From positions 66,092,001-66,156,000 of the forward strand of contig OZ024742.1 in the NCBI GenBank assembly GCA_964016885.1: 64,000 nucleotides of DNA, written 5' to 3'. The DNA comes from Eledone cirrhosa (lineage: Eukaryota). Made by a program: the position numbers and the translations under genes. The notes below the pieces were generated by a model. That model had not been told where the DNA came from, ran no database searches, and saw only the letters and a program-made list of their open reading frames with translations. Of this stretch, positions 6,705 through 61,545 are shown piece after piece. The stretch's first letter is position 1, and each line of letters starts with the position of its first letter.

Positions 6705-7444
6705 ATATATATATGTATATATATATATATATATATATATATATATATATATAAATATATATATATATATATATAAATATATATATATATATATATATAA
6801 ATATATATATTTATATATATTTATATATATATATATATATATATATATATATATATACGTTATTCCGGGTTGAATCGGAGGTAACCACAGTAAGTAAGGT
6901 ACTCAATACATAGCAGAGTATAACAGTTTTAATATAGATGAGATTCTACAGGACTAGAACTGTTCCTGATGATTTCTAATGAATGAAACAGTTCTAGTCC
7001 TGTAGAATCTCATCTATATTAAAACTATATATATATATATATATATATATATATATATATATATATATATATATATATATATATATATATATATTTATAT
7101 GTATATATATATATATATAAATATATATATATACATATATATATATATATATATATATATATATATATATATATATATATAAAAATATATATATATATAT
7201 ATATATAAATATATATATTTATATATATATATATATTTATATATATATATATATATATATATATATATATATATATATATATATATATATATATATATAT
7301 ATATATATATATATATATATTTATATGTATATATATATATATATAAATATATATATATACATATAAATATATATATATATATATATATATATATATATAT
7401 ATATATATATATATATATATATATATATATATATATATATATAT
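6705..7444. repeat. Long (TA)n field with an embedded fold-back element
   Basis: Direct reading. Confidence 0.95.
6858..7026. mobile_element. Fold-back hammerhead mini-element, family A
   Basis: 40-bp arms 6925-6964 / 6987-7026 around CTGATGA-TTTCTAATGAAT-GAAA; long-arm tail 6858-6924; homologues at 14654-14825 and ~27115-27250. Confidence 0.75.
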
Positions 7445-8579
7445 GAAGGTAACCCTGATTTCAGGCGTGCTTGATTTGCCCTGACTTGAAATTTGTCCTT
7501 ATTCAAATTTCCGTCGCAAAGTCACTCATAGAATTTCGCTGAAGCAGTCCAAGGCTGAAGTGAATATTTACAAACATGATGTTACCTTTTTCTTAACGTG
7601 TCTTTCACTGTGAAAAAAATAAATAAAAGGAAAAAATAAAACGCACAGCTACAGCTCAGTTTTCCGAACGCCTCTGGCCGACCTCCATATCTTAATGAAG
7701 TTCAAACAAAGCTCCAGTAAACGTAGTTTACATGCTTCCAAACACAATAACTGTTATACTTCCTGCTGGAATCGTTTGAGAAAATATTCATTTATTTTAT
7801 AACAAGCCTAGTTCGCACTATATGCAAATGAGCATTACCAGCCGATGATTTCCATTTGATATATGCAAATGATCATTTCAAGAAAATATTCATCACGAAA
7901 CTTGAAACAGCGATGCCTGATATTCTCGACTGCTTCTGATAATTTGTTGCGCGTTGGTATTTTCCATACTATTACAGCAACATAATTCCGTACATTCACA
8001 CCTGTCGCTGAATTTTCTTTCTTTTACAAGGTGTGACAGGTGTAGCTACTCGATGATAGTTTTCTTCTTTCTCAGGGTCGGTCACAAGCAGCGTTTTGTC
8101 TTTTCTCTCCATTGCGTTATCACCTAATTGTCATCTCCACTGGCCGAGTCCTTCATATCAGAGAAACTAACGAGAATTTCGCTGCCCAACTTTATATGCA
8201 TATTTCATTTAGTGCGACAGAAATGTAAGGTACACTATATATTAAAAAATAATATTTTAAAAAATTGTGTTTGGTCTGTGTGTCTGTAGTGTCCACGATG
8301 TTCCTACATGTATTTAAAGATTGTTTTCATTATTTGCCTATCGTTTGTTTGTCAGTTTTTCGTTTCGAATCACAATATTATCTGTACAGCAATAGACCTG
8401 TTTCTGACCTATTGCTGTTGTGGTATTCTAGAATGTTTTCAACACTTAGCCGAATGCACTATTTATGACTAGATGATGAAGTGAATAGTTGTTCTTCTCG
8501 TCCTACCTCCAACTGAACACCACACAGTCATTCTCTCGATAATATTATGAATATATATATATATATATATATATATATA

Positions 8580-8722
8580 TAGGAACGAGTAGGACCCCGA
8601 CGGCTGAGCTCGAGCTCAGCCGTCGGGGTCCTACTCGTTCCTATTACCCAATCTACTACCCTAAGTATTGAGTACTTTGGTGCGTTATGGTCCACCTGGT
8701 TCCTTACCACATTTCTTTCGTT
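8580..8722 (+). mobile_element. Fold-back mini-element, family B
   Basis: Perfect 64-bp palindrome 8580-8643 with no spacer, then a ~80-nt tail into (TA)n; homologue at 14968-15175. Confidence 0.8.
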
Positions 8723-57522: not shown

Positions 57523-59780
57523 GCCCACTAAGTTGGCTCGGTCGCCCTTGAAATATATATAATAAAATAAATATGGTTTTATAAATATATTTTCCATTTA
57601 TTAATATCTTTGAATAGTTACTCCAGTAACTGTTGAGTGCTCTATATCAGTTATAAACATTTATCTTTGTCGGAATTCCAACAAATTAAATATAACTTCT
57701 ACATATATATATATATATATATATATATATACAATATTATAAAGCTAAGCGTCGTGTGTATGTATTATGTATGTATTCTACACACCTCCCTATAGCTTTA
57801 CACTCTCCGTCGCTTCCCCTCTGTATAATTTAACTGTTTTACTCTCTCTGTCGCTCTTCACTCTCTATATGACAACACTGTTTTAGTTTCCGTATCTCCC
57901 TTCAATCATCTGTCGTCGCTCTTATAAGTAACACACACACACAAACACACACACAACCCCCCCCCCCCCCACACACACACGCACACACACAAATACGCAT
58001 ACTTTCACACCTGATTTCGCCAATTGCCGGATAACATCAAAACAAAACACACAGACACACACATGCACACATACACAAACACATAGACACACATATCTAT
58101 ACTTATAAATATGACGGTCGTATATATATATATGTATGTATGTATGTATGTATGTATGTATGTATGTATGTATGTATGTATGTATGTATGTATGTGAAGC
58201 TTTTATAGTGAGCAAAGGCACTGCACAAAGCCAGGGTAGGGGTTCTCCTACATGGATATAAAGTAGTGGCCGTACTCGAAAACGAGTTGGCAGCCACCAT
58301 GTATGTATGTATGTATGTATGTATGTATGTCTCTATAATTTAACAGCTTTACTCTCTCTGTCGCTCTTACTCTCTATATGACAACACTGTTTTAGTTTCC
58401 GTATCTACCTTCAATATACACACACACACACACACATATACATATATATATATATATATATATATATATATAGAGAGAGAGAGAGAGAGAAATAGAGAGA
58501 TTTAGAGAATGATTAGGAAAACTACACACACATCTACTAAGAGAGACAGAAAAACAGAGGAGGGGAAAAGAGAGAGATAGGCCGTTAGACAGAGAGAGAT
58601 ACAATTAAAGTGTTAGTTATTCAGAGAGAGAGAGAGTAGGAAGGACAATGTGACACGGGACGGAGTGTCGTAGCTTTGCAGTGGAGTGGTAGGGAGAGCT
58701 ATACCTAGCCGAGCGCCAGTCGGACGGGGCAGCTAATATATATGAAAAAAGGGAGAAAATGTCGATTATTAGGAAGAAAATATATTTGTTTCCTTTTACT
58801 TCTTCTCTTTTTTCTGAGTTAGAAAATGTTTAAAACAATATATTTTACTTTGTGTGAAGTGTTAAGGTATTAGTTAATTTATTTATTAATTAACAATGGC
58901 ATTTATTCATTTATTTATACATATGTACAGGAAGAACTCATAGGAGTGAACGGCCATCCAAAATGTGTACATGCATACATAGATACATGCATACATAGAT
59001 ACATAGTGGCTGGCAACTCGTGTTTGAGTACGGCCACTACTTTATATCCATGTAGGAACCCCTACCGATGCGCTGAACGAGTGTGACTTTTTAGTCCAGC
59101 CAGCGACTTGAAACTCTGGTACAAACACTACACTTGTGACAATATTGACACATAGTGCTGGCCCATGGTACCATGTGACGACAAGTGCAGAGAGACCTCC
59201 ATATATAAAGCAATGCATGTGCTGTGAAGCTTTTATAGTGAGTAAAGGCACTGCACAAAGCCAGTCCTACTCTCTTAACCAAGATGATATTTACCAAAAG
59301 AAGAACAAGCCAACATCATTGGATACCATCAGAGTTGCAGGTGTTATATCAGAGTTTTCCTTCTCCTAGAATTCTGCCTTGACGAAGGCTAAGGGGTCAT
59401 CTCTCCCGGTGATTTTGGATGGCCATTGACTCTTAAGAGCTCCTTTTCCCTTTGACAGGTTTTTCTTTTAGGATGTCCAAAGTCACCCTCCTCACCAAGA
59501 AACTTTGGTGGGGTTGCCAGTTTAGTCGCCAAGGAGCCGACCGTGTGACAGGTTGTACTGGGATACATGTTACCAGTAGCACCAACTGGTGACCTGACAT
59601 ACAATCATACATACATGTGAATAAATACATTGTAATAAAAAACCTGGAATAAAATCACGGTAAACAAAACGACTGTGTTACAAAGATCAAACGCGCGGTC
59701 GTTAAACATATACGTCAAGCATAACCAACGCGGAAAATAGAAGGCGAGACGAAAGACAAAATACCACATGGCTGTCGACA
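57523..59780. repeat. Near-identical copy of 55104-57322, probably a contig-overlap artefact
   Basis: Both copies abut the gap exactly; differences are mostly homopolymer or microsatellite length. Confidence 0.9.
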
Positions 59781-61239
59781 GAGAGGATGACTGTGATTGA
59801 ATAACTAACGGGGTTTTTTCAGAGAAAATGGGGAGACAATCAATCCTTGTAACTGCTTTGGTCACGTTCCTCAATTCCGCCCGTTTCTAAATTGGCCCTC
59901 TAACTTTATAAGGTACATTCAGGCACACATACACACGCACATATATATTTGCCCAAAAGGAGCTGAAATAATCCTTCCAAATAGTTTTCCTGTCTTCCAT
60001 AGTTCCTTGCAGTTCAATTATTGGTGTTATATCTCTTTTACCAGTTGGACTATTTGTTTGCCTTTCGTTTTGGTAAAAGGACTTCACCAACACGATTTTA
60101 CGAGTCTATCAGGTTTCCTTTTAATATCAGACTCTTCAGACACACTTTCCATGAGTTCAGATAATTTTTGGTGAATTAAATTTGGTGAAATAGCAGCCAA
60201 AACCTTCAGCATCAAATATGCTAGAAGTAGCGGCTATATAACATAGATCAAATTTAACATGTCTACGATAGACATGACAAATCCCGTAAACAAGACAGGG
60301 AGACTGCACCAAAAGAAACAATAACGATGATGTACGATTAATCTAAAAGTAGTTTTAAAATAGAAAAATAATATTTATAGAAAGACAAAGTAAAAAAATG
60401 ATATGAAATTATCACAGACACAATTAATGTTTGAAGATTCCATCCTTGAAACCATATTATTTCAATACTATACAAACATTTCAGGGTTTTTGATTCACTT
60501 AATAATCTGAAAGTGATGGATCGAAAATCGTCTTTGGAGCATGAAGTCTAAGTTTAATGTCTGTTGAAGCTGCTCTATGATCAGTAGTTCTTGTTTGTGA
60601 AGTAGTTATAAATGCTTCTGCGTTGTATACAGATCGAATCCACATCGTTCAGCTCCCTTTTAGGTACCTGACAGTAAATTTGTCATTTCTTCAGTAGTAG
60701 AAAAACATTTACCAATTAATGACGGGCTCTTAACTTTTCTCCTGGAAGCGATGAGTAGTGCGAGGAGAGAATCAAAGCAAGCGGAGCTGTAGGAGTGAAT
60801 TGTATTCCTTTAGAGATAGGAGAATCACCAAAATTGGCAGTTATTTGTAAACATTCTTTAGAGCAAAGTACAGTTTTAATATATCATTTGAATTTATATA
60901 ATAATTTTCCTGAGAGATTTGGTATTGATGTACACCTTGCGTATCATCTATATGAAATAAGTTTAATAAGGTATTATGCTTGGAAAACCTAAAAAATGGA
61001 AATTAGTAGTCCAAGTTACGAAACGGTCAAATGAGGAGACAGTGAGTAGTCTTGAATCGAGATACTTACGAAGAAGTTATATACATAATTACATGCATAA
61101 GTACACACTATGTACATATATATACATTCACACAAACATACAGTATTTTTTCCTCTTTTTCTCACACATACCTATGCATATATATATATATATATATAAT
61201 ATATATATATATATATATATATATATATATATATATATA

Positions 61240-61545
61240 TGTAGGAGGTGAGTTTTATTGTAGAACAATAAAGCAATGCAAATATCGGATAAGTAGCACT
61301 CAACAGTTTATTGGACTGGAGTATATATAAGAGAAAATTAAAAGATGGTTAACAAAGTTCCATGTATTTTATTATGCGCATTTCAAAAACAAATATTATC
61401 CTGGGACGATATTTGCGTTCTCATCATGTCTCCCTATTTTATCTGATGAGAACGTAAATATCGTCCCAGGATGATATTTGTTTTTGAAATGCGCATAATA
61501 AAATACATGGAACTTTTTTAACCATCTTTTAATTTCTTCTTATTT
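61240..61545. mobile_element. Fold-back hammerhead mini-element, family D (related to C)
   Basis: Arms ~61325-61426 / 61445-61545; long tail 61240-61325; in (TA)n. Confidence 0.83.
61435..61506 (+). ncRNA. Type-I hammerhead ribozyme with palindromic stem III
   Basis: TATTTTAT-CTGATGA-GAACGTAAATATCGTCC-CA-GGATGATATTTGTTTTT-GAAA-TGCGCATA-ATAAAATA. Confidence 0.85.

Follow-up and report, generated by a model that had tools for sequence, protein, structure and literature searches.

The 12 short non-coding units dispersed through a 64,000-nt stretch of Eledone cirrhosa DNA (contig OZ024742.1; the window) are probably the short ends of at least six families of Penelope-like elements (PLEs), arranged head-to-head in (TA)n, and each likely arose in one event involving two separately primed cDNAs. 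For the most part they illustrate, at high density, an insertion pattern already known, and are not a new class of self-copying hairpins. This reading draws on fixed 3' ends, locus-specific junctions, outward-facing hammerheads and an element that bears an ORF and matches the units in layout and ends. Counting against it, an ORF-bearing partner was seen for family D only, and no hammerhead was found in families F and G.

Layout and families of the units

The preliminary description assigned all 12 units one layout, a fold-back with a one-sided tail between simple repeats. We recovered this layout in 10 of them, with arms of 31-261 nt (80-100% identity) and tails of 40-112 nt; the units at 16490 and 27115 did not conform. 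At 16490 an arm pair was absent, the best candidate being a 25/32 nt AT-rich match, and 27115 was a decayed pair of 46 nt at 79% identity, lacking a TA run on the right and any clear tail. The claim of at least six sequence families (A-F) was borne out by self-BLAST and alignments. Together the 12 units occupy 6.2% of the window. An autonomous-type copy (3138-6704), a related structure (33096-33901) and solo copies at 41494 and 32560 had been omitted from the preliminary description. Of the 140 complex short frames, 110 were scanned with Pfam, which revealed no host exon and gave one sub-threshold match. The units and related copies are as follows (strand is given where one was assigned).

6858..7025: family C unit; 68-nt tail, 39-nt arms; hammerhead 6966-7004 (+), whose stem II has U-U at its base
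8581..8721: family B unit; perfect 31-nt arms meeting in a palindrome within the likely stem III; 79-nt tail; CUGANGA absent
14653..14826: family C unit; arms at 80% identity, 60-nt tail, degenerate hammerhead
14969..15174: family B unit; 58-nt arms, 79-nt tail; likely hammerhead represented by its 3' half only
16487..16748: family A unit lacking a fold-back; arm without tail (minus, hammerhead 16587-16538) head-to-head with a tail piece (plus)
22382..22803: family A unit; 176-nt arms at 97% identity, short palindrome at the junction, 69-nt tail; hammerhead 22555-22506 intact, that of the opposite arm altered by a single change in the core
27113..27215: decayed remnant of family C; arms of 46 nt (79% identity), no clear tail
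29099..29727: family D mini-unit; identical 261-nt arms, hammerheads 29352-29318 (-) and 29527-29561 (+), 55-nt tail
29761..30619: family E unit; arms at 91% identity, 112-nt tail, hammerhead-like fold broken in both arms; the left arm is a non-coding monomer of ~440 nt, preceded head-to-tail by a 55-nt tail end
32550..32605, plus strand: solo tail-less family B copy, by alignment to family B
32633..32968: family F unit; identical 114-nt arms, 68-nt spacer, 40-nt tail; hammerhead not found
33096..33901: family G, unlisted earlier; non-coding monomer of ~500 nt, partial tandem copy (95.5%) and an inverted tail-less arm of 81 nt
41492..41675, minus strand: solo tail-less family A copy; hammerhead 41588-41540
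54892..55283: family A unit; 125-nt arms at 94% identity, 92-nt tail, a hammerhead on each arm
61241..61544: divergent family A unit; 100-nt arms at 95% identity, 86-nt tail, hammerhead 61443-61497 intact; the junction falls within the tail-arm hammerhead

An ORF-bearing element with the same ends

The proposal that the units are ORF-less PLE ends with type-I hammerheads was upheld, the tie to an ORF-bearing element being direct for family D. Three features carry this tie.

3138..6704, minus strand: Neptune-like Penelope element (family D), decayed and 5'-truncated; it lies in (TA)n and has inverted ends plus a tail
3857..5122, minus strand: longest intact ORF piece, with RT core, thumb, CX4CX2C linker and the start of the GIY-YIG nuclease
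6636..6704, plus strand: likely ORF start through the tail of the 3138-6704 copy, from its codon pattern against 29098

The decayed 3138-6704 element and the 29098 mini-unit belong to different subfamilies and have their ends, hammerhead and tail in common. The arms of the former (3143-3901 and 5918-6661) are 90% identical, its tail is 43 nt long, and its RT and GIY-YIG motifs are spread across several frames. In the window, the protein features of EN+ PLEs, a PLE-type RT with a C-terminal GIY-YIG and a CX2-5CxxC linker, were found in this element only. Judged by the motifs given in the available text of PMC8557442, it appears Neptune-like. Homologs of its ORF were recovered at E 1e-151 to 1e-31, the best being 61% identical, and one of them contained a Pfam GIY-YIG domain; the ORF itself matched no Pfam family and no solved structure.

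Codon comparison suggests that the family D tail likely encodes the beginning of the ORF. Between 6636..6704 and 29098, 6 of 10 differences were synonymous (P ~0.007) and 7 of 10 lay at third positions, and the 29098 tail holds an open frame from the ATG at 29179. BLASTP of the tail peptide against two homologs gave no N-terminal match, while local alignment to 15 homologs matched it to residues 6-26 of a single one (shuffle p ~0.03, not significant after 15 tests). The remaining tails did not match homolog N-termini. The family A tail was not coding-like, having stops or no ATG, and retained a hairpin near its end.

Hammerhead motifs

Most units had been said to carry a hammerhead; a complete fold was present in only 6 of the 12 (6858, 16490, 22381, 29098, 54893 and 61240). 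All motifs found, in these six units and in the solo copy 41494, read outward as previously stated. A strict type-I descriptor detected 8 motifs in the window versus 0 in each of 30 dinucleotide shuffles, and allowing U-U at the stem II base raised this to 9, with 1 match in 3 of 30 shuffles. Folds that were broken yet recognisable by eye occurred at 14654 and 29760, and at most the 3' half of a hammerhead at 8580 and 14968; the descriptor, U-U variant included, found none in 27115 or 32633. Neither descriptor found a same-sense pair in any unit of the window. The CTGACGA at 32560 was rejected as a hammerhead core, as it overlaps GAAA.

Across the whole window, no Rfam family reached its gathering score. 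Two motifs searched singly returned no hammerhead at E<=10, and almost all of the 150 listed of 286 E-value matches were sub-threshold miRNA-hairpin matches; minimal PLE hammerheads would be expected to fit the Rfam models poorly. In the family A hammerhead, 97.4% of 115 cells were paired, for a structure drawn from the same sequences at five independent loci. Family A subfamilies with 71-92% identity kept the hammerhead through compensatory changes. Folding of seven motifs as monomers gave weak z-scores (-1.76 to +0.39), the active fold mostly not being predicted, and the family A motif had no match in the metagenome or viral contigs searched. In the reading favoured here, the predicted hammerhead would be a passenger of the pseudo-LTR.

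Junctions in the window and in sequencing reads

Both 3' ends, inner and outer, were constant within each family, and the junctions differed or were absent at 5 family A, 2 B, 3 C and 2 D loci. No junction was shared between loci in the window save in a near-identical duplicate beside an assembly gap. Reads were examined for family A, using 150-nt reduced-representation reads and fragmented contigs, and revealed numerous rare joints, none of them dominant. In runs X7 and X8, 6518 and 7360 reads ended at two inner-end places straight into (TA)n, and 8403 and 8256 continued into the tail. The 15 joints listed of 36 each had at most 87 reads, at peak depths of ~25000-28000. Depth at 22624, adjoining the 22381 junction, was 794 versus a peak of 3.9 million (X1), upstream subfamily divergence being a further cause of the low depth. 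In three contig joints, as in 16490, a tail piece directly adjoined the start of an arm, and two read joints at 22597, a CCGG site, may be ligation chimeras.

Because the 3' ends are fixed per family, no junction is shared and no read joint dominates, the hairpins are likely one-off integration products, and the earlier suggestion that they may amplify as a retrozyme-like class was not supported. Small-scale copying of some hairpins is possible, since the short reads and fragmented contigs represent one family, and depth near the junction is also lowered by divergence.

Arm asymmetry and proposed mechanism

In 6 of 14 structures (3138, 6858, 16490, 29760, 54893 and 61240), the spacer is part of the arm without the tail; 5 structures are symmetric and 2 have the spacer on the tail arm. 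A tail-less arm with sequence missing from the tail arm defeats simple self-priming and is accommodated by two separately primed cDNAs. Four of the five family A loci have 5' ends 71-92 nt upstream of the core. Such clustered 5' ends are not explained by random truncation alone, and their clustering within families suggests either run-off where the transcript begins or templates that are short and non-autonomous.

We propose that a Neptune-type GIY-YIG nuclease would cut both strands of (TA)n. One cDNA would be primed at the outer site and carry the tail, and the other would be primed at the inner site and lack it. Each would halt early or run off the RNA 5' end, which would account for the length caps specific to each family, and the cDNA ends would then anneal at a short palindrome or microhomology before fill-in. 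The RNA template would be uncleaved because the arms span the cut site, and the resulting hairpin would be a dead end, not a replicating unit. Two-strand priming as the source of the inverted structure is our suggestion and goes beyond the published in vitro work; a literature search covering few subscription journals found no such proposal for PLE inversions.

Alternative explanations

Self-priming by fold-back on one antisense template at palindromes, proposed for rotifer Penelope in the accessible text of PMC3846280, agrees with the palindromes at the junctions of 8580, 22381 and 14968, and fits the five symmetric structures and the two with the spacer on the tail arm as well as two cDNAs do. 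However, a copied arm cannot contain sequence missing from its source arm, and in the six asymmetric cases the tail and the extra 5' sequence lie on opposite arms, which contradicts self-priming as a general mechanism; the arms of 16490 have no sequence in common at all. We therefore regard it as improbable; a template switch onto antisense RNA is possible. That the hairpins form a mobile class, their fold-back RNA being re-copied in trans with the junction kept, is very unlikely. Their density would suit it, as would the summed word depth beside the 22381 junction (794 and 616), which exceeds the single-contig level of ~5-17 and makes some junction sharing possible, but the window loci and the family A reads speak against it as set out above. 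In addition, where a unit has two hammerheads they are on different strands; a single transcript therefore cannot hold the same-sense pair used by retrozymes, and the ribozyme of a hairpin transcript would be sequestered in dsRNA. The long inverted repeats, and the 100% identical arms of two units, might recall DNA-transposon MITEs or assembly fold-back artefacts. These we consider negligible given the one-sided tails, solo copies, variable centres, arms mostly diverged to 80-97%, RT-bearing relative and recurrence of the same two ends in raw reads of two further samples; the symmetric TIRs and constant interior of a MITE were not found.

For families A, E and G, the source may instead be a short RNA that lacks an ORF and has a fixed 5' end, partnering Neptune elements in the manner of a SINE or retrozyme, a reading to which we give somewhat less than an even chance. 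The linear monomer would amplify by the same chemistry and the hairpin would be a by-product, so that this is compatible with two-cDNA integration and differs only in the source RNA. The family A arms of 16490, 41494 and 54893 start at a homologous position (22381 ~10 nt further in), and the tail, which is not coding-like and has an end-proximal hairpin, and the hammerhead preserved across subfamilies point the same way. E and G have non-coding monomers of ~500-560 nt, placed head-to-tail, with a homologous starting motif, and non-autonomous PLE derivatives are described in the available parts of PMC8557442 and 10.64898/2026.07.22.740005. Against this, family D also has a fixed 5' start, both 29098 arms sharing their first base, up to which the left arm was re-copied, together with a probably coding tail, so a fixed start can be the transcription start of an autonomous element. 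The family D 5'-start motif also occurs within the 3' pseudo-LTR of the ORF-bearing copy, and E and G could each be two neighbouring insertions.

Discussion

As elements these units are ordinary, and their worth lies in the natural data set that they form. A genome this rich in short copies allows a count-based test of two-strand priming versus self-priming and of truncation versus fixed-5'-end run-off. Octopuses show heavy A-to-I RNA editing, and in such a host dispersed perfect hairpins of 30-260 bp could feed it. Tentatively, family A, and perhaps E and G, may be very high-copy, ORF-less, hammerhead-bearing Neptune partners with a fixed 5' end (PLE-driven SINEs), the loci recording a general rule of two cDNAs on opposite strands from two start sites, often with 5' run-off like strong-stop DNA. 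If true, this rule would explain the inverted-plus-tail structure, whose origin is still called unresolved in the available text of PMC8557442.

The comparisons that follow refer to the accessible parts of the cited papers. Non-LTR retrozymes (PMC7229834; 10.64898/2026.07.22.740005) are likewise short, non-coding and AT-rich, with a type-I hammerhead and kinship to PLE pseudo-LTRs. In contrast to the head-to-head units here, they form head-to-tail tandems with same-sense ribozymes and circular RNA. Head-to-tail joins occurred here in E and G only, neither with two intact ribozymes, and no tandem had a complete same-sense hammerhead in consecutive units. With the minimal type-I PLE hammerheads (Cervera and De la Pena 2014, PMC4209133), our motifs share a short stem I, a palindromic stem III suited to dimers and, in family D, an additional base after A9. 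They differ in the 8-bp stem I and long, bulged stem II of family A; in C and E, stem II has U-U at its base and stem III is longer. That paper had already noted opposite-strand hammerhead pairs 100-700 bp apart and ascribed them to truncated PLEs.

The 3138-6704 element shares with the Neptune clade the DKS-G motif, RT core, CX4CX2C linker, C-terminal GIY-YIG and (TA)n site, a likeness by motifs that applies to the family D element only. The Penelope protein of Anolis Poseidon (Frangieh et al. 2024, PMC11167929) cut and extended both strands in vitro. Its two internal RT starts bounding the tail, AT-rich target and uncleaved RNA template agree with our model; it belongs to another clade, and the inverted structure is not derived there from two-strand priming. 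The complex insertions of EN+ PLEs described by Craig et al. (2021, PMC8557442) and Arkhipova et al. (2013, PMC3846280), in which an inverted 5'-truncated copy is accompanied by a one-sided tail, have in common with the units the head-to-head copy, a tail that may be present at one end, strong truncation at the 5' side, partial tandems, insertion into (TA)n, junction palindromes or microhomology and, likely for family D, a tail encoding the first ORF residues; in rotifer Penelope the tails overlap the ORF start (PMC3846280). The units differ in their longer tails (40-112 nt versus the 30-40 nt described) and in being nearly all pared down to the pseudo-LTR, and where the 2013 paper proposed self-priming, the six asymmetric cases here favour two cDNAs.

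Layout and families of the fold-back units

Each of the 12 fold-back inserts in the preliminary description was cut at its simple-repeat flanks and aligned with its own reverse complement. The single layout claimed for all of them, paired inverted arms with a tail on one side, was recovered in 10 of 12; no arm pair was found in 16490 by this alignment, and 27115 is a decayed relic whose tail is not clear. Together the 12 units occupy 3996 bases (6.2% of the window), and as a finding they are real. Self-BLAST and alignments recovered six families (A-F), in line with the minimum of six proposed, and a further family, G, had not been listed.

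Units (by start position) with family, arms and tail (lengths in nt)
6858: family C, arms 39, 100%, tail 68
8580: family B, arms 31, 100%, tail 79
14654: family C, arms 56, 80%, tail 60
14968: family B, arms 58, 93%, tail 79
16490: family A
22381: family A, arms 176, 97%, tail 69
27115: family C
29098: family D, arms 261, 100%, tail 55
29760: family E, arms 236, 91%, tail 112
32633: family F, arms 114, 100%, tail 40
54893: family A, arms 125, 94%, tail 92
61240: family A, arms 100, 95%, tail 86
41494 (solo), 57523 (duplicate beside the gap): family A
32560 (solo): family B
33096-33901: family G

The tails of the unrelated families A, B and C have an 8-nt motif, TTGAGTRC, in common (6899, 8668, 15121, 16679, 17295, 22427, 55214, 57633, 61296). 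It occurs 14 times in the window against 3.86 expected, having been picked after it was seen, and could mark a protein-binding site or an RT start. The segment 17200-17331, ending in (TA)n, is a possible further unit with a minus-strand CTGATGA and a plus-strand tail-like piece bearing TTGAGTRC. Families E and G have in common only an end of about 70 nt, with two small hairpins beside a TATA-like linker (30110-30195, 33500-33582), which could be a promoter head or a Helitron-like end. The family G monomer also holds, at 33400-33435 (plus strand), a pyrimidine tract followed by AG, 14 nt and GTAAGT. This resembles a micro-exon bounded by its two splice sites, on the strand opposite to the direction inferred for the element.

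Candidate hammerheads

A strict type-I descriptor returned 8 motifs in the window and 0 in 30 shuffles. Permitting U-U at the stem II base, as described for an axolotl retrozyme (PMC7229834), gave 9 motifs, with one hit each in 3 of 30 shuffles. The motifs lay in 6 of the 12 listed units plus solo 41494 and pointed away from the junction, as had been noted; a hammerhead in most units had been claimed, and the descriptor search located one in half. It found none in 27115 or 32633, family B lacks the CUGANGA half, and the hammerhead-like folds of 14654 and 29760 are broken. The suggested covariance-model check, with Rfam models, detected none of these motifs, either in a scan of the window at gathering score or, for two of the motifs, at E<=10. 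In family A, 97.4% of 115 cells were paired across three stems (slid controls, 36-61%) and 3 pairs had changes on both sides, the structure being drawn from the same sequences scored, with 5 independent loci; this pairing is supportive of the hammerhead fold, not proof of it. The descriptor-found motifs are candidate ribozymes in half of the units.

An ORF-bearing Penelope-like element

The segment 3138-6704, overlooked in the preliminary description, has a unit-like layout with TA flanks, arms of 759 and 744 nt (90%) and a tail of 43 nt, enclosing a broken ORF. Fifteen long proteins match its longest ORF piece; the top match is an Octopus vulgaris prediction (61%), so the host is probably an octopus. 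By the descriptions in PMC8557442, its DKS-G motif, RT core, CX4CX2C linker and C-terminal GIY-YIG agree with Neptune rather than with Hydra or Naiad, a provisional placement by sequence features. The view that the units are ends of Penelope-like elements (PLEs) holds for family D, where 29098 matches 3138-6704 in hammerhead position, inner end and tail. The family D tail is an open frame, with an ATG 8-9 codons ahead of the inner end; a comparison of 29098 with 3138-6704 shows 10 differences, 6 of them synonymous (P about 0.007 for an expected fraction of 0.20) and 7 at third positions. Its resemblance to homolog N-termini is at most suggestive. This coding-like pattern recalls that of rotifer Penelope, whose ORF start spans the pseudo-LTR (12 residues) and the tail (up to 22), as described in PMC3846280.

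Fixed ends and variable junctions

Members of a family agree in their inner and in their outer 3' ends, and the centre differs at each locus or is absent. Segment 22382-22660 (family A) was compared at 80% likeness with a pair of contig sets from a single sample and a pair of reduced-representation read sets from other samples. Family A proved very abundant, with 7596 and 7056 matching contigs in the former and 29383 and 32275 matching reads in the latter. Among the 24 of 693 loose ends listed, 6518 and 7360 reads exited directly into (TA)n at two places at the inner end, and 8403 and 8256 ran onward through the tail. These counts confirm two fixed family A ends, used about equally. The joints listed (15 of 36) were scattered over many positions, each with at most 87 reads against a peak depth of about 25000-28000. 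Depth at 22624, adjoining the junction of 22381, was 794 against 3.9 million in a contig run and 162 against about 25000 in a read run, summed depth giving no copy number. Most reads begin at a restriction site within the element and are blind to junctions; the contigs are short, and subfamilies diverge upstream. One dominant junction common to family A loci is unlikely, and limited sharing is possible. Apart from the near-identical duplicate beside the gap, no common junction appeared among loci of any family, nor a dominant joint among those listed for the family A reads, so that the proposed junction test speaks against a self-amplifying hairpin class as far as the window and these reads reach.

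The 5' ends are also non-random, in small numbers of loci. They lie 71-92 nt upstream of the core in 4 of 5 family A loci (homologous position in three) and about 60 nt from the inner end in 2 of 3 family B loci, while family C arms stop at or near the core in 3 of 3. Both arms of 29098 start at the identical base, and the left one also contains two brief re-copied stretches whose ends fall no more than 4 nt from that base, as run-off and jumping would produce where an RNA physically ends. The motif at this start, which we take to resemble a YY1 site, recurs in the pseudo-LTR of 3138-6704.

Origin of the fixed and inverted ends

Reverse transcription may either start inside an autonomous transcript, close to its 5' end, and then run off, or use short non-autonomous RNAs as templates. 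The latter is tentatively favoured for families A, E and G, given the non-coding family A tail and the head-to-tail arrangement of the E and G monomers, which are roughly 500-560 nt long.

For the inverted ends, PMC3846280 proposes self-priming on one template, the second arm being copied from the first; tail and extra 5' sequence would therefore be confined to the same arm. The spacer on the tail arm in 29098 and 33096 and five symmetric structures (8580, 14654, 14968, 22381, 27115) are compatible with this; 32633 was assigned to no spacer class. However, tail and extra 5' sequence lie on different arms in 6 of 14 structures (3138, 6858, 16490, 29760, 54893, 61240), and in 3138 the tail-less arm carries 2 kb of ORF. 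At least three contig joints show the arrangement of 16490, with a tail piece fused to an arm start. Two separately primed cDNAs, one per strand, would explain all 14 structures, with a subsequent joining step that we infer. This model agrees with in vitro work on Penelope protein in PMC11167929, where both strands are cut and extended, two start sites bound the tail and the template is uncleaved RNA. No proposal of two-strand priming for PLE inversions was found in searches on Penelope twin priming and head-to-head PLE models, made in a collection with few subscription journals.

Other repeats in the window

808-2161: minisatellite, roughly 60-80-nt unit with variable CT tracts
10677-10889: minisatellite, 66-nt unit
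11273-11474, 16941-17203, 32203-32426, 39871-40041, 41967-42295, 61653-61850: SINE-like family, roughly 200 nt, at least 6 loci
43242-46137, 50205-53630, 53754-54347: RT-bearing non-LTR elements
46777-48964 (minus strand): broken LINE with apurinic endonuclease and RT pieces
55782-55876, 56521-56605, 58235-58329, 58974-59066: 85-95-nt repeat, alternating orientation, adjoining (CATA)n

The non-LTR elements are presumably R4/Dong-like, and the LINE we take to be RTE-like. Direct repeats at 45832-46579 and 53754-54503 (95%) bracket two other elements. Some partial SINE-like copies are inverted or tandem, and the 85-95-nt repeat also holds TTGAGTAC in two copies. Blocks 55104-57322 and 57523-59780, 94-98% alike and flanking a 200-N gap, are likely an assembly overlap or a recent tandem duplication.

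Comparison with known systems

The units have the layout of the Penelope-like insertions that PMC8557442 shows in its Fig. 2. Pairs of hammerheads on opposite strands of truncated PLEs, separated by 100-700 bp (PMC4209133), and non-autonomous PLE derivatives (PMC8557442; 10.64898/2026.07.22.740005) have already been published, and 31 recently active Penelope-like families, which may include those described here, are annotated in O. vulgaris (PMC13282606). Retrozymes, as described in PMC4209133 and 10.64898/2026.07.22.740005, need a same-sense hammerhead pair, which the fold-back units lack because the two hammerheads of one unit sit on opposite strands; a unit transcript would instead hold a single sense ribozyme base-paired with its antisense counterpart. 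Against this background, the interest of the units lies in their evidence on inverted-end formation and in their fixed 5' ends.
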